Positions 24,631 through 46,531 of a stretch of DNA of 64,000 nucleotides are shown here, in pieces (the stretch's first letter is position 1; each line of letters opens with the position of its first letter). Source of the stretch: Escherichia coli (GTDB lineage Bacteria > Pseudomonadota > Gammaproteobacteria > Enterobacterales > Enterobacteriaceae). Location of the stretch: NCBI RefSeq assembly GCF_050920415.1, contig NZ_CP169309.1; one strand, written 5' to 3'. The position numbers and the translations under genes were made by a program. The notes below the pieces were generated by a model that did no database searches, had not been told where the DNA came from, and was given only the letters and a program-made list of their open reading frames with translations.

Positions 24631-25617
24631 ATGGCTGTTAAAGGCTTAACTGCGCTAACGCTGGCTGACTGGGGTAAGCGCGTCGATCCAAACGGGAAAG
24701 TCGATAAGATTATCGAGCTTCTCGGTCAAACTAACCCGATCCTTCAGGATATGCCTTTTGTCGAAGGGAACCTTCCTACCGGACACCGAACCACCATTCG
24801 TTCTGGTTTACCTTCAGCTACCTGGCGTTTGCTGAACTATGGCGTACAGCCAAGCAAATCAACCACAGTGCAGGTAACCGATTCCGTTGGCATGCTGGAA
24901 ACCTATGCTGAAGTCGATAAGTCACTGGCTGATCTGAACGGCAATACCGCCGAATTCCGCCTGTCTGAAGACCGCGCATTTATTGAAGCGATGAATCAGC
25001 AGATGGCGCAGACGCTGTTTTATGGTGATTCCAGCGTTAACCCTCAGCAGTTTATGGGACTGTCCTCCCGCTATTCCAGCCTGTCTGCGGGTAATGCTCA
25101 GAACATCATTGATGCTGGTGGCACGGGTACAGATAACACCTCAATCTGGTTAGTGGTGTGGGGCGAAAACACCGTGCATGGCATCTTCCCGAAAGGGCAG
25201 AAGGCTGGCATCCAGATGGAAGATAAAGGCCAGGTGACACTGGAAGATGCTAATGGCGGCAAGTACGAAGGCTATCGCACCCATTATAAATGGGATAACG
25301 GACTTGCTCTGCGTGACTGGCGTTATGTTGTTCGCATTGCAAACATCGATGTCAGCAATCTTTCAGAACCTTCCTCTGCCGCAAATATTGCGAAGTTGAT
25401 GGTTAAAGCACTGCATCGCATTCCAAACCGTGGCATGGGCCGCCCGGTGTTCTACATGAACCGCACTGTAGGCCAGGCTCTTGATCTGCAATCTCTGGAG
25501 AAAACATCTCTGGCGATCAGCGTAAAAGAGACAGAAGGCGAGTGGTGGACTTCATTCCGTGGTGTACCAATCCGTGAAACTGATGCGCTTCTGGAAACAG
25601 AAGCCCGCGTGGTGTAA
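24631..25617 (+). CDS. major capsid protein
   Basis: ~330 aa, position after scaffold; start 24625 or 24631. Confidence 0.75.
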   Translation: MAVKGLTALTLADWGKRVDPNGKVDKIIELLGQTNPILQDMPFVEGNLPTGHRTTIRSGLPSATWRLLNYGVQPSKSTTVQVTDSVGMLETYAEVDKSLADLNGNTAEFRLSEDRAFIEAMNQQMAQTLFYGDSSVNPQQFMGLSSRYSSLSAGNAQNIIDAGGTGTDNTSIWLVVWGENTVHGIFPKGQKAGIQMEDKGQVTLEDANGGKYEGYRTHYKWDNGLALRDWRYVVRIANIDVSNLSEPSSAANIAKLMVKALHRIPNRGMGRPVFYMNRTVGQALDLQSLEKTSLAISVKETEGEWWTSFRGVPIRETDALLETEARVV

Positions 25618-39684: not shown

Positions 39685-41940
39685 ATGACGGTCTCAACCG
39701 AAGTTGACCACAACGAATACACAGGCAATGGCGTTACGACTTCATTCCCTTATACCTTTAGGGTTTTCAAGGAATCTGATCTGGTAGTGCAGGTGGTTGA
39801 CCTTGACGAAAATATCGCTGTGCTGGCTCTGGATACTGATTACACTGTCACTGGGGCTGGTGGATATAACGGCGGTAATGTAATTCTGTCGAAGGCGTTA
39901 GCTAACGGTTACCAGATTTCTATATCACGAGAGCTCCCGGTTACGCAGGAAACTGATTTGCGTAATCAGGGGAAGTTCTTTGCAGAAGTGCATGAGGATG
40001 CTTTTGATAAGCTAACGATGCTGATCCAGCAGGTTCGAAGTTGGTTTAGCTTGGCGCTGCGCAAGCCGTCATTCGTGGCAAATTATTATAACGCGCTGAA
40101 CAACTATATTCGAAACCTGAAAGACCCGGTAAACCCGCAGGATGCATCCACAAAGAATTATGTGGACAGTACGGTTTTATCGAATATCGACCATACAATC
40201 CGTGTTCCTGATTCTTATATCGATCCGCTGCCACCTCTCGCTCAACTTGAAGGAAGCATAATCGGCATCGCCAACGGTAAGCCCGTTCCGTTCCCTGTGC
40301 CTTCAGGAACGGCGGCTGACGTATTCAACCAGTTGGCCAGCAGCGCTGACGGGAAAGGTGATGCGCTGATAACAGTGAAGCAGCCTTACCAGGGGGCAAT
40401 TTCTCTTTCGCAGCATATAAAAAATGCACAAGCCATTAGTGTTGTTGATTTTGGAGCGACAATTGATGGAACGCTTCACCCTTTAAGCGAGATATTTTCA
40501 ACACTATCAGCTGCTCAGATGGTATATCCATTTGTTTCATCTCTATCTCAATCTGTTGATTATGCTGCGCTTCAGTCCGCATGTAACACGGGAAAAACAG
40601 TGCTTATTCCAAAGGGAACTGGTTACTATAATTCAACTATTTTTCTGAAAAACTCCGTTAGGATTGTTGGAGAGGGAACTGATACAATAAATAGAGCGCA
40701 ATCATTTATGTCTATTGTTGGTAATATTTCAGCCTTTGCTTTAGATCAAGGTGATTCCCTATCGACAAAAATGATTCAGATTTTTATTGATGGTCTTTAT
40801 ATTTTCTATGATCCAGGAACCACACCAACGAATCCTGAAAATGATGGTGGGAAAATTGCATTTAATTTCTACTCGACAATTCCAAATTCAACAAGCTTGG
40901 AAATGTCTGAAATTAAAAACTGTACAGTTCATGGTGCATGGTCATGCTTTAATGATCAGACTGGCACATACTTGACAAAACTTACGAATGTGTGGGCCAG
41001 AAACTGCCATAATGGTTTTACAAAAGGAACTGGCACTACCATTCTGATGGAAAGATGTTATACATCTGGATGTATATCACCATATCAGTTTGGTTCTGTC
41101 TTTGCAGCTACAATGATTAACTGTGCCATGGATGGATCAAATATTTCGTTAAACGCAGGTTCGCTTGGTGGGGCTGGCGTTCATGTTCTTAACACACATA
41201 GTTTTAACATTATTGGTTTTGATGCGGAGGGTAACACCATCTCTACAGATGGTTATGGAGAGGCAGCACTATTCCATTTCGAAAATAGTAGTGGTGGCAT
41301 TTCTGGCCTGACTGCACATCAGAACAGCATGCGAAGTGTTGCGCCAAGTGATGCTGGTGTAGTTTCCTACATCAGGGCGTCAGGTAGCAGCGATGTTAAA
41401 ATTGAGTCATCAGAAGATGATTTATCTGACACCAACACAGTTGCATATACTGGGTCTGGGTATCCCATCATGCTACATGCAACTGACACAGCTAAAATAA
41501 GCGTCTTTAATAGCAGATTCAGGGCGACTACCACTGGTACCCCTGTCTTAAGTACGCTAAGTACTGGTGATGTATCATGGTATGACTGCCCTAAAAAAAC
41601 AGGACTTATCGTAGATGGTTATTCACAAATAACATCTAAGGAAGGATTGCAAACATCATGCTTCTATACCAGTAAAGGCTCTACTGCTGTTGCTGAAAAT
41701 ACTCCGACAACACTTTTCTCTCTACCAGATTCGCAAGGTACTTACATTATTAGCGTATGGGTGGCTGGAAGCGGAGAAAATTACGCATCTACACAACTGG
41801 CAATGTATGATGGAGATAAGCTAATTCTTGTTGCGTTAAAAATAGCAGCATTTCTTAGTTTTTCAGCAACAGGGAGAATTGTAACCATTACAAGCCAGGT
41901 GGCAGGCACTTTAAACTGGACTTACACTAAAATAGGTTGA
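39685..41940 (+). CDS. tail fibre/tailspike with T7 gp17-like N-terminal adaptor domain
   Basis: 751 aa; N-terminal ...YTGNGVTTSFPYTFRVFKESDLVV...DTDYTV pattern; Gly/Ser/Thr-rich C-terminal region. Confidence 0.7.
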   Translation: MTVSTEVDHNEYTGNGVTTSFPYTFRVFKESDLVVQVVDLDENIAVLALDTDYTVTGAGGYNGGNVILSKALANGYQISISRELPVTQETDLRNQGKFFAEVHEDAFDKLTMLIQQVRSWFSLALRKPSFVANYYNALNNYIRNLKDPVNPQDASTKNYVDSTVLSNIDHTIRVPDSYIDPLPPLAQLEGSIIGIANGKPVPFPVPSGTAADVFNQLASSADGKGDALITVKQPYQGAISLSQHIKNAQAISVVDFGATIDGTLHPLSEIFSTLSAAQMVYPFVSSLSQSVDYAALQSACNTGKTVLIPKGTGYYNSTIFLKNSVRIVGEGTDTINRAQSFMSIVGNISAFALDQGDSLSTKMIQIFIDGLYIFYDPGTTPTNPENDGGKIAFNFYSTIPNSTSLEMSEIKNCTVHGAWSCFNDQTGTYLTKLTNVWARNCHNGFTKGTGTTILMERCYTSGCISPYQFGSVFAATMINCAMDGSNISLNAGSLGGAGVHVLNTHSFNIIGFDAEGNTISTDGYGEAALFHFENSSGGISGLTAHQNSMRSVAPSDAGVVSYIRASGSSDVKIESSEDDLSDTNTVAYTGSGYPIMLHATDTAKISVFNSRFRATTTGTPVLSTLSTGDVSWYDCPKKTGLIVDGYSQITSKEGLQTSCFYTSKGSTAVAENTPTTLFSLPDSQGTYIISVWVAGSGENYASTQLAMYDGDKLILVALKIAAFLSFSATGRIVTITSQVAGTLNWTYTKIG

Positions 41941-41975: not shown

Positions 41976-43835
41976 TTAAAAAATAAATGGCTTGTCATTT
42001 TTTAATTTTTTCCCAAACTCCCTTGAGCCTTCTAGAGTGAAATGACTATTATCAAAGTAAAGATAATCACCTTTAGTAGAAAGGATGTCACAATTCATTG
42101 ACTTTCCGCACTGCTCGGCAAGCGTATCTATGTATTTATACGAATGCTGGTTGCTACCAAGATAGCCTTTTATCGTATTGTTAATTTCAACTCTACTATT
42201 GTCATAATACTTTTTAGAGTATTTATTTATCCCATCAACTGTGTTTACGCCAGATTTAAAAGCAGACTTAATTATTTCCATTGGCTGTGCCGTAAACTTC
42301 ATCTTAGGCCCAAATACAATAACTTCTCCTTTAGTCCTCTCCTGTATTTTGCCTATAGAGTAAAGCATCCCGAACAGATCGCCAACGCCATAATCATCAT
42401 GAAGGATTATAATGTTAGCTTCAGCTATGGCTGGAGATGAGATTACGTCATTGAATATTTTTTTGCACTTTTCTACATAGGGCATGTCGTTTGGTGTATA
42501 ACCAAAGTTTGAACATAAGTTTGTAGTTCTTATATAAGTTATATCACCCTTCATCCCATTTTCAGTAAGTGCATAAGTCAGATCTATGCCATGAGAATTA
42601 CCGATTATTACTATTTTTTTGTCACCTGTCTTCGGTACAGGGTGAGGCTTGTCTCCATCAACCCAATACCTGTTCATTTGTTCTTTTAGCTGTTCGGACG
42701 TCATTGTGGCAAACGAAAACCTTGATGGAATTCCAGATAGCAATAGTACAGCGAAGCACAAACCAACTACACCACCTACAGGTAGCACGATTGAAGTTAA
42801 TTCATTCAAGGACCTGCCGTTTTTAAATTTTGAAAGTGCCTTTCTTGAAGGGTTTTCAATTAAATAAAATGATGCGGCACCAATAAGAATTGATAAGGCA
42901 ACACCTGATACTGTATAAACCATATCATCCATCTTATTCATTGACATATATACAACTATGGGCCAGTGAACCAGATATACCGAGTATGAAATTTTCCCAA
43001 CCCATTGAGATAATGCATTATCAAGTAATAGGTTATCTTTACATCCAAGATAAATGACAAAGAAAGTAGAAACGACTGGTATTAAGGCAAGATACCCAGG
43101 CCACTTCATTAAGCTGTTAAGCAAGACTATCCCCGATACTGCAAAGGCTATGGCAATCCATCTAAATACAGCAGTGCGTTTTGAATTTTGTATAGTAGGA
43201 AGAAGGTAGGCAAGGCCGCCAGCCAGCATCTCCCAAGCTCTGCTTGACAGAAGATAAAATGCAGCGCCCTGATTATTATAAGAAAGATACACTGAGGCAG
43301 TAAATGATATAATTGCAAGGATGGCAACAACATACCTTATATGCTTAGCGCCCAATAGCTTTGCAATCACCATCATTATGATTGGATATACCATGTAAAA
43401 CTGCCACTCTACAGAAAGCGACCATGTATGAAGAAGCCATTTCTGCTTTGATGCAGTATCAAAATAATCAATGCTATGGTAATACTCAACGTTTGAGAAA
43501 AATAAAAGGCTACTTCTTACGTGTTGAGCCAGGTATTCATATTCAGAAGGTAAAAGAATGAAGTAACCAACTATCAGAACAGCAACTGAAACTACAGTTA
43601 AAGCAGGTATAATTCTTCTTGCCCTATCAAGATAAAATCCTAACAGTGAAAAGTTTCCATTAGATATCTTTGTGTAAATTATTCCAGTCATCAGATACCC
43701 TGATATAACAAAGAATATATCTACGCCTGAAAATCCACCAGAGAACCCTTTGACTCCGAAGTGATAAAGGACAACTGCCATAACAGCAATAGCCCTAAGC
43801 CCGCCTATATCTGTTCTGTATTTTAAAGAAGACAT
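41976..43835 (-). CDS. O-antigen acyltransferase (acyltransferase-3 membrane domain + C-terminal SGNH-like domain, OafA-like)
   Basis: 619 aa; N-terminal multi-TM with ...AVVLYHF...DIFFVISGYL...; lysogenic-conversion candidate. Confidence 0.75.
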   Translation of the reverse strand: MSSLKYRTDIGGLRAIAVMAVVLYHFGVKGFSGGFSGVDIFFVISGYLMTGIIYTKISNGNFSLLGFYLDRARRIIPALTVVSVAVLIVGYFILLPSEYEYLAQHVRSSLLFFSNVEYYHSIDYFDTASKQKWLLHTWSLSVEWQFYMVYPIIMMVIAKLLGAKHIRYVVAILAIISFTASVYLSYNNQGAAFYLLSSRAWEMLAGGLAYLLPTIQNSKRTAVFRWIAIAFAVSGIVLLNSLMKWPGYLALIPVVSTFFVIYLGCKDNLLLDNALSQWVGKISYSVYLVHWPIVVYMSMNKMDDMVYTVSGVALSILIGAASFYLIENPSRKALSKFKNGRSLNELTSIVLPVGGVVGLCFAVLLLSGIPSRFSFATMTSEQLKEQMNRYWVDGDKPHPVPKTGDKKIVIIGNSHGIDLTYALTENGMKGDITYIRTTNLCSNFGYTPNDMPYVEKCKKIFNDVISSPAIAEANIIILHDDYGVGDLFGMLYSIGKIQERTKGEVIVFGPKMKFTAQPMEIIKSAFKSGVNTVDGINKYSKKYYDNSRVEINNTIKGYLGSNQHSYKYIDTLAEQCGKSMNCDILSTKGDYLYFDNSHFTLEGSREFGKKLKNDKPFIF

Positions 43836-43871
43836 AATCGCTATCGTTTTGAGTAAGATGCATTAATGATA

Positions 43872-43886
43872 TCACCTTTAGGGTAA
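43872..43886. promoter_or_regulatory. operator-like palindrome TCACC TTTAG GGTAA
   Basis: Divergent region between acyltransferase and lysis cassette. Confidence 0.5.
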
Positions 43887-43991
43887 TTTCGTTAAGAGTT
43901 ATCCGATCAAATTTAATCCACATATGGTTTATTGTGTATGATGAACTCACCAACTAAGGGGGTTCTTTATGCACAATAAACGGTGGTCACT

Positions 43992-44396
43992 ATGGCGCAT
44001 GTGCTGACAACAGAGTCAGTAAATCAGGGGTTAAGCCTGACTGCACTGGCGTCCGTGTTCGTTGGTATACCGCCTGAGGTGGCTTTAGGTGCTCTTGCTG
44101 GTGCGGTAATTTTTGTTACCTCAGCGGTTGAGTATCCGATAAAGCGTAGGTTGCTCCTGGCGCTCCTAAGCTTCCTCTGCGGCGTTCTCTTCTATAAAGC
44201 GACAGCTTCCATTCTGATTGGCTTTGCCAGCCTGATACCAACGATTACGCAGGACTCTTTTGAGAAGGGCATTGTGTATTCCGCCGGGGCATTCGTGTCT
44301 GCAATCGTCGCTGTTCGCATTGGCATCTGGCTGTATCACCGTTCTGAAAATCCGCGCGACATGATCCCGGGGAGAAAAGACGATGACCAGTCCTGA
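43992..44396 (+). CDS. holin-like membrane protein
   Basis: Multi-TM, first gene of lysis cassette; start 43983 (GTG) or 43992 (ATG). Confidence 0.45.
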   Translation: MAHVLTTESVNQGLSLTALASVFVGIPPEVALGALAGAVIFVTSAVEYPIKRRLLLALLSFLCGVLFYKATASILIGFASLIPTITQDSFEKGIVYSAGAFVSAIVAVRIGIWLYHRSENPRDMIPGRKDDDQS

Positions 44397-44676
44397 TCTG
44401 CTTCTCATCCTTAACGCCGCTATCTGCGGTGGCATTGCAATCCGAGTGCTTCTGTTCCGCCGTGACGGGTCACGTCACCGCTGGTGGGGTGGGTGGCTCG
44501 CCTATCTGCTGATCGTCGTGGCAGCCAGCGTACCTATCCGGACTTTCTACGGGTACTACGTCAGCGCCGACTGGTCAGAAGTCATCATCAAAGCCGTGTT
44601 CCTGGCTGCGCTCATCAAGACAAAAGGGAACGTGGTGCAAATTTTCAAGATAACGAGGTCCCAGCATGGACATTAA
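44383..44676 (+). CDS. lysis-associated membrane protein (holin/antiholin candidate)
   Basis: 97 aa with TM segments, overlaps neighbours. Confidence 0.4.
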   Translation: MTSPDLLLILNAAICGGIAIRVLLFRRDGSRHRWWGGWLAYLLIVVAASVPIRTFYGYYVSADWSEVIIKAVFLAALIKTKGNVVQIFKITRSQHGH

Positions 44677-45295
44677 CCAATTCCAGCGTGCAGCTGGCAT
44701 CAGTGAGGTGCTGGCCGCGCGCTGGTACCTGCATATCACCGCAGCCATGAAAGAGTTTGGCATCGAGCAACCGCTGCACCAGGCGATGTTTATCGCGCAG
44801 GTGGGGCATGAGTCTACTGGTTTCACCCGGCTGCAGGAAAACTTCAACTACAGCGTTGCAGGGCTCGCAGGATTCGTCCGCGCCGGGCGACTTACTCAGG
44901 GTCAGGCCAACGCGCTGGGCCGCCGTGCTGGCGAGCCATCGTTACCGCTGGAGCGCCAGCGCGCGATCGCCAATCTGGCGTACAGCAAACGCATGGGGAA
45001 CAATGCCCCTGGTGATGGCTGGAATTACCGTGGCCGCGGACTTATCCAGATTACCGGTTTGAATAACTATCGTGATTGCGGAAACGTCCTGAAAGTGGAC
45101 CTGCTGGAGAATCCTGAACTGTTGGCGCAGGACGAATATGCGGCTCGTAGCGCGGCGTGGTTCTTCGCCAGCAAAGGATGCATGAAGTATACCGGCGATA
45201 TTGCACGTGTAACTCTGATTATCAATGGTGGCCGGAACGGCATCGACGACCGGCGCGCGCGGTACATCACTGCCAGTAAGGTGCTGGCGGTATGA
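44666..45295 (+). CDS. endolysin, glycoside hydrolase family 19-like
   Basis: FIAQVGHESTGF and GRGLIQITG signatures. Confidence 0.75.
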   Translation: MDINQFQRAAGISEVLAARWYLHITAAMKEFGIEQPLHQAMFIAQVGHESTGFTRLQENFNYSVAGLAGFVRAGRLTQGQANALGRRAGEPSLPLERQRAIANLAYSKRMGNNAPGDGWNYRGRGLIQITGLNNYRDCGNVLKVDLLENPELLAQDEYAARSAAWFFASKGCMKYTGDIARVTLIINGGRNGIDDRRARYITASKVLAV

Positions 45296-45774
45296 TCTGG
45301 GCATTCGCAAAAGCATACTGGAAACAGTTGCTTATCGTGGTGATGCTTGCTGTTCTGGTCATATCGGGAATTGTTTCCTGGAATGTACACGGCAGTCGTC
45401 AGTACGATGCCGGGTATGCGCAGGCGAAGGAAGACCGCAAAGCTGAAGATGAGATAGTTCGTCAGCACTACGAACAGGAGAAATCGATCAATGAACGTGA
45501 AGCGCAGCAGAGGATCGACCAGGCGCGCAATGATGCTCTTGATGCTGCCGCTCGCGCTGGCCGGTTGCAGCAACAACTCTTTGCCATCCGTGAGCAGCTC
45601 AGGCAGTATAACGCCATTGTCGGCGCTGGGACGTCAGCCGCAGACACCGGAGTTTTGCTTGCCGACGTGCTCAGCAAATCTCTCGAGAGAAACAGACAAC
45701 TGGCAGAGTATGCTGACCGGGCAGCCGAAGCCGGAAGAGTCTGCGAAAAACAATACGACACCCTGACCAGATAG
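45292..45774 (+). CDS. i-spanin (Rz-like)
   Basis: N-terminal TM then coiled coil; ATGA overlap with endolysin. Confidence 0.6.
   Translation: MIWAFAKAYWKQLLIVVMLAVLVISGIVSWNVHGSRQYDAGYAQAKEDRKAEDEIVRQHYEQEKSINEREAQQRIDQARNDALDAAARAGRLQQQLFAIREQLRQYNAIVGAGTSAADTGVLLADVLSKSLERNRQLAEYADRAAEAGRVCEKQYDTLTR
45530..45766 (+). CDS. o-spanin (Rz1-like) lipoprotein embedded in +1 frame
   Basis: MMLLMLPLALAGC lipobox, Pro-rich; entirely inside Rz-like gene. Confidence 0.5.
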   Translation: MMLLMLPLALAGCSNNSLPSVSSSGSITPLSALGRQPQTPEFCLPTCSANLSRETDNWQSMLTGQPKPEESAKNNTTP

Positions 45775-45802
45775 CATGGCATTTTTCATGGTACTGATTT
45801 CC

Positions 45803-45813
45803 GGTGACGGTAT
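45803..45813. repeat. GGTGACGGTAT, candidate integrase arm-type site (right arm)
   Basis: Same 11-mer as 6187-6197. Confidence 0.3.
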
Positions 45814-45884
45814 ATAAAACGGTACTAGAAAAATGAAGTTTTGGAAAAATGTTATCACTCAATTGGTTATGATTGTCGTAAATA

Positions 45885-45901
45885 ATTGAGTGGGAATGAT
45901 T
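45885..45901. repeat. attR core (ATTGAGTGGGAATGATT)
   Basis: Exact copy of 6047-6063. Confidence 0.65.
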
Positions 45902-45928
45902 TGATCCCTGCACTATGAATTAGCAAAA

Positions 45929-45954
45929 CCCTCTGTTACTACAGAGGGTTTTTA
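45929..45954 (+). terminator. native guaA-type terminator hairpin displaced by the prophage
   Basis: ccctctg-ttacta-cagaggg then TTTTT; same stem as phage-side copy at 6110. Confidence 0.6.
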
Positions 45955-45991
45955 TACTCACGAATCATAGGATTGAAGTTACTGACATCGC

Positions 45992-46531
45992 TTAGTTAAA
46001 CCAGCTGTCCGATTTGTTCTCTTCTGCTTTGCCCACGCTTTTCATCAGATCGCGACCGCCTTCAGTCATATTCCTGTTTGCGTCAGCTTCAGATTGCACC
46101 ACATCGGTTTGCGCAGCTTTGTGCTTCAGTTCCTGATCGATAAATTCGTTTTCTCGCTTAACGCGGGCTTCTTCTTTCGCCAGCGCCAGTTTTTGTTTCT
46201 GAATCTCTAAGCTGCGTAGCTCATCTTCATAACTTTGATCGCGTTTCTTGTCCGCAGTGGCTTCGGCGTCCAGTTTATCCTGACGAGCTTTCTTATTCGC
46301 CGCTGCCGTTGCCGCTCTTTTATTAGCCGCGGCCTGGGCGTTTGCGCGACGTTGCTTCTCTTGCTGGATTTCCCTGTTGCGCTCCGCGACCCATTCGTCA
46401 TGCTGCCTTTGCTCTTCATTTTTACCTTGCTGTTCCGCTTCTGCGACAGCAGAGAGTTGATCCTGCAATGATGAGGCGATAGCCGGATAGCTTAAGGAGG
46501 CTAAGATGGCGCAAAGAAAAACTTTCTTCAT
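45992..46531 (-). CDS. yfgI: periplasmic protein YfgI
   Basis: 179 aa with signal peptide; position between guaA and yfgH as in K-12. Confidence 0.75.
   Translation of the reverse strand: MKKVFLCAILASLSYPAIASSLQDQLSAVAEAEQQGKNEEQRQHDEWVAERNREIQQEKQRRANAQAAANKRAATAAANKKARQDKLDAEATADKKRDQSYEDELRSLEIQKQKLALAKEEARVKRENEFIDQELKHKAAQTDVVQSEADANRNMTEGGRDLMKSVGKAEENKSDSWFN

Follow-up and report, generated by a model that had tools for sequence, protein, structure and literature searches.

Layout of the lysis cassette

The DNA analysed (the window) is a 64,000-nucleotide stretch of Escherichia coli contig NZ_CP169309.1 (assembly GCF_050920415.1). At positions 43992-45774 it carries five tightly overlapping genes on the plus strand, in the order gpA, gpB, endolysin, Rz and Rz1. 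Two small membrane proteins followed by a GH19 endolysin, an i-spanin and an embedded lipoprotein had been proposed for this region from an initial reading of the DNA, and all five plus-strand open reading frames are present. Successive genes overlap by 14 nt (gpA/gpB), 11 nt (gpB/endolysin) and 4 nt (endolysin/Rz), which makes coupled translation of the genes probable. A leader hairpin and a mini-ORF precede gpA, while a phage attachment core and a terminator-like hairpin follow Rz.

Pfam matches for four lysis families (those of gpA, gpB, the endolysin and Rz) were all above the curated cut-offs, and PHROG spanin, holin and endolysin families were matched with E values of 1e-34 to 1e-89. NCBIfam gave no meaningful match for any of the lysis proteins. 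The interpretation of the region as a lysis cassette is supported, and the cassette is already known: the same five genes are annotated in BUCT554, phiV10, epsilon15 and SPN1S, with 78-86% identity at the DNA level. It was matched in 564 of 5426 complete E. coli genomes, and IMG/VR already contains an identical copy of the stretch (2155/2155 nt). Its spanins were included in a census of spanins published in 2018 (PMC6139136).

Leader hairpin and mini-ORF

The sequence preceding gpA folds into a hairpin of 23 pairs with a 6-nt loop (43927..43981, plus strand). Its minimum free energy is -27.8 kcal/mol (z = -8.8) on the plus strand, compared with -15.7 kcal/mol on the minus strand. The hairpin folds in 47 of 47 distinct homologues, with a mean of -24.8 kcal/mol versus -13.3 kcal/mol on the opposite strand, and it is 92% identical across homologues, compared with 77% for the gpA coding DNA. 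When the single-sequence structure was imposed on the 47 sequences and pairing was counted, 92.8% of the cells were paired and five cells had double changes. These sequences are highly similar, and their covariation did not rise above that of shuffled alignments, the score being reached by 45 of 500 shuffles; a covariation-proven leader RNA is therefore not claimed. RNAalifold returned no consensus structure for the 47 sequences, and the sole match when 43700-46100 was scanned against Rfam was a chance one to a miRNA (E = 0.28). The support for the hairpin comes from thermodynamics, strand asymmetry and conservation.

Enclosed in the hairpin are a strong Shine-Dalgarno sequence, AAGGGGG, and, 6 nt downstream of it, the ATG of a mini-ORF of 12 codons, MHNKRWSLWRMC (43969..44007, plus strand). 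The original prediction included a 12-codon ORF with a strong ribosome-binding site just upstream of the first lysis gene, at 43967-44005. Such an ORF does exist, with the coordinates corrected to 43969-44007; rather than lying merely upstream, it runs out of frame into gpA, over the first 16 nt of that gene. The Shine-Dalgarno sequence and ATG were tallied in 62 of 65 distinct upstream regions, and the other three, which were misregistered in frame by the tally, show the same Shine-Dalgarno sequence and ATGCAC by eye. The mini-ORF has 12 codons in 55 of the 62 variants and 6, 8 or 11 codons in the remaining seven. The possibility of a programmed frameshift joining the mini-ORF to gpA was discarded, since the gpA frame is closed upstream by a TAA at 43977-43979 and no slippery heptamer lies between this TAA and the ATG. 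The leader of Burkholderia phage Mana, compared with the one described here, lacks the hairpin.

There is a substantial chance, a little short of even, that the mini-ORF is not translated. The G-run and ATG would then be by-products of the hairpin. The hairpin itself would serve in RNA processing or stability, as a site for RNase III or as a 5' stabiliser, or would act in the DNA as a promoter or operator. Pairing of the ATG and the G-run within so stable a hairpin would hinder 30S binding, and the encoded peptide varies both in residues (H/N, I/S/N, S/L and others) and in length. The epsilon15 record marks a putative RNase III site, not a CDS, at the same position (24755-24817). In addition, the left arm of the hairpin holds a conserved TATNAT hexamer, the variable position of which breaks a pair in 11 of the 47 sequences, as would be expected if the hexamer were a -10 promoter element. 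Nevertheless, the G of the ATG and two of the Shine-Dalgarno G residues form G-U wobbles and are (nearly) invariant in the 47 variants, whereas the constraint of the hairpin alone would equally allow A. The spacing between the Shine-Dalgarno sequence and the ATG is near-optimal in every readable homologue. In all cases the mini-ORF stop codon is located from -5 to +16 nt relative to the gpA ATG, which is the geometry of termination-reinitiation, and the much weaker hairpin on the minus strand argues against a purely DNA-level palindrome.

By analogy with known lysis genes, the leader most likely sets the level or the timing of gpA and gpB translation. Possible routes are processing by RNase III, sequestering of the ribosome-binding site, or coupling of termination and reinitiation. 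A more elaborate version, which we consider distinctly unlikely as it stands, would make the leader and mini-ORF (43927-43981 and 43969-44007) a dedicated post-transcriptional lysis timer of Uetakevirus phages. The strong ribosome-binding site would be locked in the stem of the unprocessed transcript and would be freed by RNase III cleavage, or by transcription starting from the TATNAT element in the left arm. After completing the mini-ORF, ribosomes would reinitiate at gpA, the start of which is weakly signalled, and this would set the gpA:gpB ratio and, through it, the time of lysis.

Two holin-family membrane proteins

The first gene, gpA (43992..44396, plus strand), encodes a polytopic membrane protein of 134 aa, a putative antiholin or second holin. 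It matches Pfam PF16931 (Phage_holin_8) with 48.9 bits, against a cut-off of 26.4, and phrog_198 'holin' with E = 1e-38, and it is 81-88% identical to its homologues in epsilon15, phiV10, SPN1S and BUCT554. The length of 137 aa originally given for this protein is obtained only from the GTG at 43983, a start that homologues do not use; from the ATG at 43992 the protein has 134 aa, and all annotated homologues are likewise 405 nt (134 aa). The suggestion that it is large for a holin does not hold either, 134 aa being normal in Phage_holin_8 (model length 121). An in-frame dual start like that of lambda S (GTG 43983 plus ATG 43992) was also rejected, as the extra V-V-T is uncharged and an ATG is found at the upstream position in only two of 65 homologues.

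The second gene, gpB (44383..44676, plus strand), encodes a membrane protein of 97 aa that matches Pfam PF05449 (Phage_holin_3_7, DUF754) with 90.4 bits, against a cut-off of 25.4, as well as phrog_217 'holin'. In epsilon15, phiV10 and SPN1S it is the homologue of gpB that carries the holin annotation. The C-terminus, KTKGNVVQIFKITRSQHGH, is basic, and it is encoded where the gene runs 11 nt into the start of the endolysin gene.

The transmembrane helices expected of putative holins were sought by hydropathy, and hydrophobic segments were found in both proteins: at about 14-48, 53-83 and 93-115 in gpA, and at 4-26 (TM1) and 34-57 (TM2) in gpB. AF2 models placed helices at 7-23, 28-44, 50-79 and 92-117 in gpA (pLDDT 63) and at 4-28, 31-55 and 65-95 in gpB (pLDDT 59), the third helix of gpB being amphipathic. 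With pLDDT values this low, only the helix boundaries were used, and with caution. The models and hydropathy together suggest three or four transmembrane helices in gpA and two or three in gpB, the number being uncertain.

A Phage_holin_8 gene also lies directly 5' of a Phage_holin_3_7 gene in unrelated phages, namely Burkholderia phage Mana, coliphage mEp390 and Pseudomonas phage PP9W2, where the gpA homologues have 122-131 aa. In Burkholderia phages KS5, KS14 and KL3, a gene for a membrane protein of 113-124 aa is directly upstream of the DUF754 gene; the former was predicted to be the antiholin and the latter the holin (PMC3091744). By analogy with such arrangements, it is more likely that gpB is the hole-former, with gpA acting as a regulator (antiholin) or as an obligatory partner. 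The literature searches turned up no experimental study of the Phage_holin_3_7 (DUF754) family, nor any genetic testing of members of either holin family from this group of phages.

The converse assignment, in which gpA forms the hole and gpB is an antiholin or auxiliary protein, or in which both are jointly required for the hole, is rather unlikely. Both proteins are labelled 'holin' by PHROG and RefSeq, and gpA resembles a class I holin in hydropathy and charge, with KRR in a cytoplasmic loop at 51-53 and a C-terminus rich in charged residues. Co-inheritance of the pair across distant phages fits an obligate two-component holin as well as it fits a holin and its antiholin. Against this, the curators of epsilon15, phiV10 and SPN1S and the authors of the Burkholderia study gave the name 'holin', as a prediction, to the DUF754 gene beside the endolysin, and the same sources labelled the upstream gene, again as a prediction, 'membrane protein' or 'antiholin'. 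Homologues of gpB were moreover found in 232 phage records versus 37 for gpA at the same tblastn threshold, a difference that may just reflect faster divergence of gpA.

Endolysin

The third gene (44666..45295, plus strand) encodes a soluble protein of 209 aa, predicted from its sequence to be a peptidoglycan-degrading endolysin of the SPN1S type. The GH19 signatures noted earlier were borne out by a match to Glyco_hydro_19 (Pfam PF00182; 38 bits, cut-off 25.5) and by a full-length match, over residues 1-208, to the solved SPN1S endolysin (PDB 4OK7, E = 7e-113). Glu49 and Glu58 are present in an HES...QEN motif and are conserved in the alignment with 4OK7; both residues have been named in the binding groove, in the SPN1S/LysSA05 numbering (PMC12391199). 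Hydropathy revealed neither a signal peptide nor a SAR helix, the maximal 19-residue Kyte-Doolittle average being 0.86 compared with a threshold of 1.6. Having no hydrophobic segment, the endolysin needs a hole-forming holin.

Spanins

The fourth gene (45292..45774, plus strand) encodes an Rz-like i-spanin of 160 aa. It matches Pfam DUF2514 with 151 bits (cut-off 26) and phrog_312 'Rz-like spanin' with E = 4e-60. A single N-terminal hydrophobic segment at residues 4-35 (Kyte-Doolittle 2.49) is followed by a long helical periplasmic domain.

Wholly inside Rz, in its +1 frame, lies the gene for an Rz1-like lipoprotein o-spanin of 91 aa (45491..45766, plus strand; phrog_11621, E = 1.6e-40), as the original prediction had it. 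It is offset by 199 nt and ends 8 nt before the Rz stop codon. The predicted lipoprotein signal is there, in the form of a lipobox, ...LPLALAGC|S, and the residue at +2 is Ser (non-Asp), which is consistent with sorting to the outer membrane. The mature protein would contain 66 aa, including 8 Pro and 12 Ser. Rz1 spans 0.41-0.98 of the length of Rz, which is the modal position reported in the spanin census (PMC6139136). In the same census, the embedded 'Bcep176' spanin family lists epsilon15, phiV10, SPN1S and TL-2011b, and by sequence the present Rz/Rz1 pair belongs to this family.

The length of the embedded ORF was dropped as evidence for a gene, since an out-of-frame ORF of at least 91 aa occurred in 12.6% of synonymous-codon shuffles of Rz. 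With length within the range of chance, the case for Rz1 is made by the lipobox, by homology and by conservation, a +1-frame ORF with a lipobox being found at 73 of 79 related loci. Rz1 is annotated in the phiV10 and epsilon15 records; RefSeq/PGAP omits the embedded gene from E. coli genomes.

Prophage setting

The cassette is the last operon of a phiV10-like prophage flanked by E. coli guaA on one side and by yfgI/yfgH on the other. The attL core (6047-6063) overlaps the guaA stop codon and is repeated exactly, over 17 bp, by the attR core, ATTGAGTGGGAATGATT (45885..45901, plus strand). The 17-bp core has the same sequence as the attP published for phiV10, epsilon15 and ZX5 (PMC9782041). About 39.8 kb separate the att sites, an integrase gene is present, and the right half of the prophage aligns with phiV10 over 80% of its length, with 96.3% identity.

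A hairpin with a U-run, resembling an intrinsic terminator, was found by folding at 45925..45954 (plus strand; -17.8 kcal/mol, z = -5.7). It was absent from the output of a consensus promoter/terminator scan, and folding confirmed it. In the prophage state it is the nearest terminator 3' of the lysis genes; because it is located past the att core, in the bacterial flank, it probably belongs to guaA itself. The same scan gave no sigma-70-like promoter for the operon on the plus strand upstream.

Taken with the gene content, this setting makes it very probable that 43927-45954 represents the lysis operon of a phiV10-like prophage (genus Uetakevirus), apparently intact, at the 3' end of guaA, and that it directs canonical three-step lysis. 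Many E. coli prophages are defective, but a decaying, non-functional remnant in a cryptic prophage is highly improbable here: none of the five ORFs is truncated, each having the length seen in phiV10 and epsilon15, which form plaques, no start codon, overlap, lipobox or catalytic Glu has been lost, the att cores and the integrase gene are in place with the spacing given above, and the structural region is 96% identical to phiV10.

Proposed lysis mechanism

To the gene structure, protein families, hydrophobic segments, lipobox, synteny, prophage context and stable, conserved hairpin observed here, what is known of lambda, P2 and SPN1S adds the likely hole-forming, muralytic and spanin activities and the likely division of labour between gpA and gpB. 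In the proposed sequence of events, gpA and gpB would accumulate in the inner membrane and, at a programmed time, large holes would open. The soluble GH19 endolysin would leave through these holes and cut the glycan strands of the cell wall. The Rz-like i-spanin in the inner membrane and the Rz1-like lipoprotein o-spanin in the outer membrane would form a complex that spans the periplasm and destroys the outer membrane, fusion of the two membranes being the probable means.

As a textbook holin-endolysin-spanin module, the cassette carries little weight as a discovery; its endolysin family already has a crystal structure, and its spanins are already catalogued. Its value for annotation is that it locates the right-hand boundary of a phiV10-like prophage at guaA and that it shows an embedded o-spanin gene to be present where RefSeq/PGAP leaves one out. 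Specialists in phage lysis may find two points of interest, namely which of two co-inherited holin-family proteins forms the hole, and the possible regulation of these two proteins by an unusually conserved leader hairpin and mini-ORF.

Comparison with known systems

The closest relatives are the cassettes of Escherichia phage phiV10 (PhiV10p27-p30a) and Salmonella phage epsilon15 (gp23-gp26 plus Rz1), which have the same five genes in the same order and with the same overlaps. In both, as here, the cassette is placed between the O-antigen conversion gene(s) and attP; the adjoining conversion gene encodes a 619-aa AT3-SGNH acyltransferase here, compared with the 338-aa Oac in phiV10. Identity to the phiV10 proteins is 83% for gpA, 90% for the endolysin, 95% for Rz and 96% for Rz1. 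By contrast, gpB (97 aa) is only 65% identical to the phiV10/epsilon15 protein (102 aa) and 99% identical to that of Enterobacter phage BUCT554, which indicates that the cassette is mosaic. Both relatives also have the leader hairpin and the start of the mini-ORF, the mini-ORF of phiV10 having 6 codons instead of 12.

Upstream RNA structures that tune the translation of lysis genes are represented by the 'sdi' stem-loop of lambda S, with its dual start, and by RNase III sites in the lambda N leader and in T7 mRNAs; RNase III requires a stem of at least 20 bp. The present leader is similar in that a stable stem-loop of at least 20 bp, involving a ribosome-binding site, lies right 5' of the first lysis gene. 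It differs from lambda S in enclosing the start of a separate, out-of-frame mini-ORF instead of an in-frame dual start. If the timer scheme were true, it would be a third mode of tuning the holin clock, beside those of lambda S, which uses in-frame dual starts, and of P2 and T4, which have separate antiholin genes.

The pairing of gpA and gpB has counterparts in P2 (Y, LysA) and in KS5, KS14 and KL3 (gp35/gp34-type), in which a protein of about 115-135 aa with three or four transmembrane segments stands beside a holin of about 90-105 aa with three. P2 Y and LysA are unrelated to gpA and gpB in sequence, and the endolysin gene lies between them. In KS5, KS14 and KL3 the gene order is that found here (membrane protein, DUF754 holin, endolysin, Rz/Rz1), the likeness being one of position; in Mana the upstream protein was confirmed as a Phage_holin_8 member, like gpA.

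The endolysin shares with the two-module GH19 enzyme of SPN1S (4OK7) and with LysSA05 of epsilon15 the Glu49...Glu58 pair and the lack of an export signal; relative to the SPN1S enzyme it is 81% identical, with about 39 substitutions. The spanins are organised like lambda Rz/Rz1, with an i-spanin anchored by a transmembrane segment and a Pro/Ser-rich lipobox o-spanin wholly embedded in its +1 frame, and may be expected to work in the same way. Periplasmic cysteines that could form disulfide links, as in lambda Rz/Rz1, are present at C151 of Rz and at C31 and C35 of mature Rz1. The lambda spanins belong to a different sequence family from the present pair, which falls into the 'Bcep176' family (Kongari et al. 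2018; Pfam DUF2514), and the mature lambda o-spanin is shorter, at 40 aa compared with 66 aa.

Gene organization of the lysis cassette

The ORF list and the sequence give five plus-strand genes: gpA (43992-44396, 134 aa) and gpB (44383-44676, 97 aa), both encoding membrane proteins, the endolysin gene (44666-45295, 209 aa), Rz for the i-spanin (45292-45774, 160 aa) and Rz1 for the lipoprotein o-spanin (45491-45766, 91 aa). Rz1 is embedded in the +1 frame of Rz at an offset of 199 nt, its end falling 8 nt short of the Rz stop. The overlaps gpA/gpB, gpB/endolysin and endolysin/Rz are 14, 11 and 4 nt. The original prediction, a lysis cassette at 43992-45774 with a GH19-type endolysin and an embedded o-spanin, was right in coordinates and description apart from two small points. 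The 137 aa ascribed to the first protein require GTG 43983 as the start, and all annotated homologues are 405 nt, or 134 aa. The 12-codon ORF upstream, put at 43967-44005, lies at 43969-44007, out of frame and overlapping the first 16 nt of gpA.

Holin-family proteins

gpA matched Phage_holin_8 (48.9 bits) and gpB matched Phage_holin_3_7 (DUF754; 90.4 bits), both above the curated Pfam thresholds. Hydropathy analysis placed hydrophobic regions at about residues 14-48, 53-83 and 93-115 of gpA and at 4-26 and 34-57 of gpB. Low-confidence AlphaFold2 models, used solely for helix boundaries, gave helices at 7-23, 28-44, 50-79 and 92-117 in gpA (pLDDT 63) and at 4-28, 31-55 and 65-95 in gpB (pLDDT 59). 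The placement of basic residues suggests that both proteins have an N-out/C-in, class-I-like topology: gpA has KRR at 51-53 and its C-terminus is charged, and gpB has RR..R.R at 26-33 and ends in a basic C-terminus.

The adjacent Phage_holin_8 and Phage_holin_3_7 genes, in this order, are conserved in unrelated phages, namely the Burkholderia myovirus Mana (124 and 106 aa), the lambdoid coliphage mEp390 (131 and 93 aa) and Pseudomonas phage PP9W2 (122 and 94 aa). About 130 aa is therefore a normal length for the first protein, not large for a holin as had been supposed, and the two proteins presumably work together. In the epsilon15, phiV10 and SPN1S records the second gene is named holin and the first membrane protein, as curators' predictions. 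Burkholderia phages KS5, KS14 and KL3 carry a 113-124-aa membrane-protein gene directly upstream of a DUF754 gene, the upstream protein being predicted as antiholin and the DUF754 protein as holin (PMC3091744). No genetic test of the roles of gpA- or gpB-type holins was found in the literature searched. Our analysis leans towards gpB as the holin and gpA as its antiholin or partner. PHROGs labels each protein a holin; the main rival, in which the roles are reversed or the pair forms a two-component holin, is possible but rather doubtful.

Endolysin and spanins

The third protein matched Glyco_hydro_19 (38 bits, above the curated Pfam threshold), is labelled endolysin in PHROGs and aligned along its whole length to the solved SPN1S endolysin 4OK7 (E = 7e-113), to which it is 81% identical. 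It retains Glu49 and Glu58, substrate-groove residues in the epsilon15 homologue LysSA05 (PMC12391199). It has no hydrophobic segment (peak 19-residue hydropathy 0.86), so the predicted endolysin is of the cytoplasmic type that needs a hole-forming holin.

Rz matched DUF2514 (151 bits, above the curated Pfam threshold), is labelled Rz-like spanin in PHROGs and has a single N-terminal transmembrane segment by hydropathy (residues 4-35). The Rz1 lipobox is L-A-G-C with Ser at +2, a residue that fits the outer-membrane sorting rule, and the mature protein is 66 aa long and rich in Pro and Ser. The length of the Rz1 ORF is not by itself beyond chance: an out-of-frame ATG ORF of at least 91 aa arose in 12.6% of synonymous-codon shuffles of Rz. 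The embedded gene is real on the strength of its lipobox, its match to the Rz-like spanin phrog_11621 (E = 1.6e-40) and its conservation. A +1-frame ORF with a lipobox was present in 73 of the 79 related loci having a complete Rz, and was kept even with other spanin sequence types, for example those with ...LLTAC or ...AVSGC. Rz1 occupies 0.41-0.98 of the i-spanin, the modal placement reported for embedded spanins (PMC6139136). RefSeq/PGAP annotation of E. coli genomes, including UTME-3 (related locus L003), gives four cassette genes and omits the o-spanin, an instance of the gene-caller bias against embedded genes described by Kongari et al. (PMC6139136).

A conserved leader upstream of gpA

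The 12-codon mini-ORF and the hairpin around it form a leader. Among 65 distinct upstream sequences from 85 related loci, a strong SD (AAGGGGG or AAGGAGG) and an ATG 23 nt ahead of the gpA start were tallied in 62; inspected by eye, the other three (L040, L049 and L058) have the same SD and ATGCAC. Of these 62 mini-ORFs, 55 have 12 codons and the remaining seven have 6, 8 or 11; the stop always falls between -5 and +16 nt relative to the gpA ATG. The G of the mini-ORF ATG and the SD G residues that pair only by G-U wobble are invariant or nearly so, and SD-to-ATG spacing is kept near optimal, which suggests selection on the SD and ATG beyond pairing.

The SD and ATG are enclosed by a long hairpin (43927-43981) of 23 pairs with a 6-nt loop (MFE -27.8 kcal/mol, z = -8.8 versus dinucleotide shuffles). 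Every one of the 47 distinct homologues folds likewise (mean -24.8 kcal/mol). Because of its G-U pairs the opposite strand is far weaker (-13.3 kcal/mol), and this asymmetry points to an RNA-level structure of the sense strand. Three results count against regarding the structure as proven: compensatory changes were few among the 47 homologues, with no excess over shuffled controls; RNAalifold returned nothing for the leader homologues, and Rfam gave no match for the hairpin. Nucleotide identity to the window is 92% in the leader versus 77% in the coding sequence after it.

Within the left arm is a TATNAT motif; its fourth base varies and disrupts a pair in 11 of the 47 sequences, a pattern expected of a -10 hexamer that suggests an overlapping promoter element. 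No conserved -35 accompanies it, and a consensus scan gave no plus-strand promoter. Just upstream of the hairpin, 43918-43927 (CCACATATGG) is conserved as CC-N6-GG, and many homologues have the perfectly palindromic form CCATATATGG. A protein might bind there, at the place of a -35 for the TATGAT element.

We take the leader to be genuinely conserved and probably regulatory. Candidate mechanisms are processing by RNase III, sequestration of the SD, and coupling to gpA by termination and reinitiation. A role of hairpin and mini-ORF as a lysis timer is unlikely. The leader is absent from distant phages that share the holin pair and is thus specific to this phage group.

Prophage context

The cassette forms the right end of a phiV10-like (Uetakevirus) prophage. 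guaA ends at 6061 and is followed by an integrase gene (6254-7504). An exact 17-bp repeat, ATTGAGTGGGAATGATT, occurs at 6047-6063 and 45885-45901 and matches exactly the attP published for phiV10, epsilon15 and vB_EcoP_ZX5 (PMC9782041). E. coli yfgI, yfgH and pdeF follow the prophage at 98.4% identity. Two terminator-like hairpins have a near-identical stem (AACCCTCTG...CAGAGGGTT): one closely follows guaA and is phage-side of attL (6108-6131), the other is in bacterial DNA beyond attR (45925-45954). The phage appears to bring a substitute for the guaA terminator displaced at integration. The record of Escherichia phage TL-2011b (L005, NC_019445.1) continues beyond the att site into host sequence (3596-4666). 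It closes with yfgI (DUF5384) and a gene resembling yfgH, whose label, 'DNA methyltransferase', looks like mis-annotation of bacterial flank.

phiV10 covers 80% of the prophage's right half (21000-45900) at 96.3% identity. The uncovered 20% includes a 751-aa plus-strand ORF (39685-41940) located where a tail-fibre or tailspike gene would be, which had no Pfam match at E <= 0.001 and may encode a different receptor-binding protein. Divergent from the lysis operon, a minus-strand gene (41976-43835) encodes a 619-aa acyltransferase-3 and SGNH fusion (PF01757 and PF19040) that looks like an O-antigen-modifying lysogenic-conversion gene. A sigma-70-like promoter on the minus strand (43866-43895; TTAACG, 18 nt, TG-TATCAT; 9/12 matches) is aimed at it, and the surrounding block (CACCTTTAGGGTAATTTCGTTA) is conserved among homologues with quite different conversion genes. 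The slot is an exchangeable moron site, holding a 338-aa Oac in phiV10, O-antigen polymerase and inhibitor genes in epsilon15, and gtrABC in BUCT554.

Comparison with known lysis systems

The cassette is 78-86% identical to those of Enterobacter phage BUCT554, phiV10, TL-2011b, epsilon15 and SPN1S and is present in 564 of 5426 complete E. coli genomes; IMG/VR (L008) holds a 100% identical copy of 43836-45990. It is internally mosaic: gpB is 99% identical to BUCT554 but 65% to phiV10, and Rz and Rz1 share 95-96% identity with phiV10. At least three spanin sequence types are paired with one gpA type across related loci.

By homology and architecture, lysis would most likely follow the canonical three steps, in which the holin or holins, a soluble muralytic endolysin and a two-component spanin act in turn, as extrapolated from work on lambda, P2 and SPN1S. 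The cassette is already known, since all its protein-coding parts belong to described families, reference phage records annotate the whole, a crystal structure exists for the endolysin type and the spanins are in a published census. The mini-ORF within the hairpin is the sole cassette element for which no description was found in the literature searched. The hairpin itself is already flagged in the public record, the epsilon15 GenBank entry having a putative RNase III site at exactly its position (24755-24817 of that entry).
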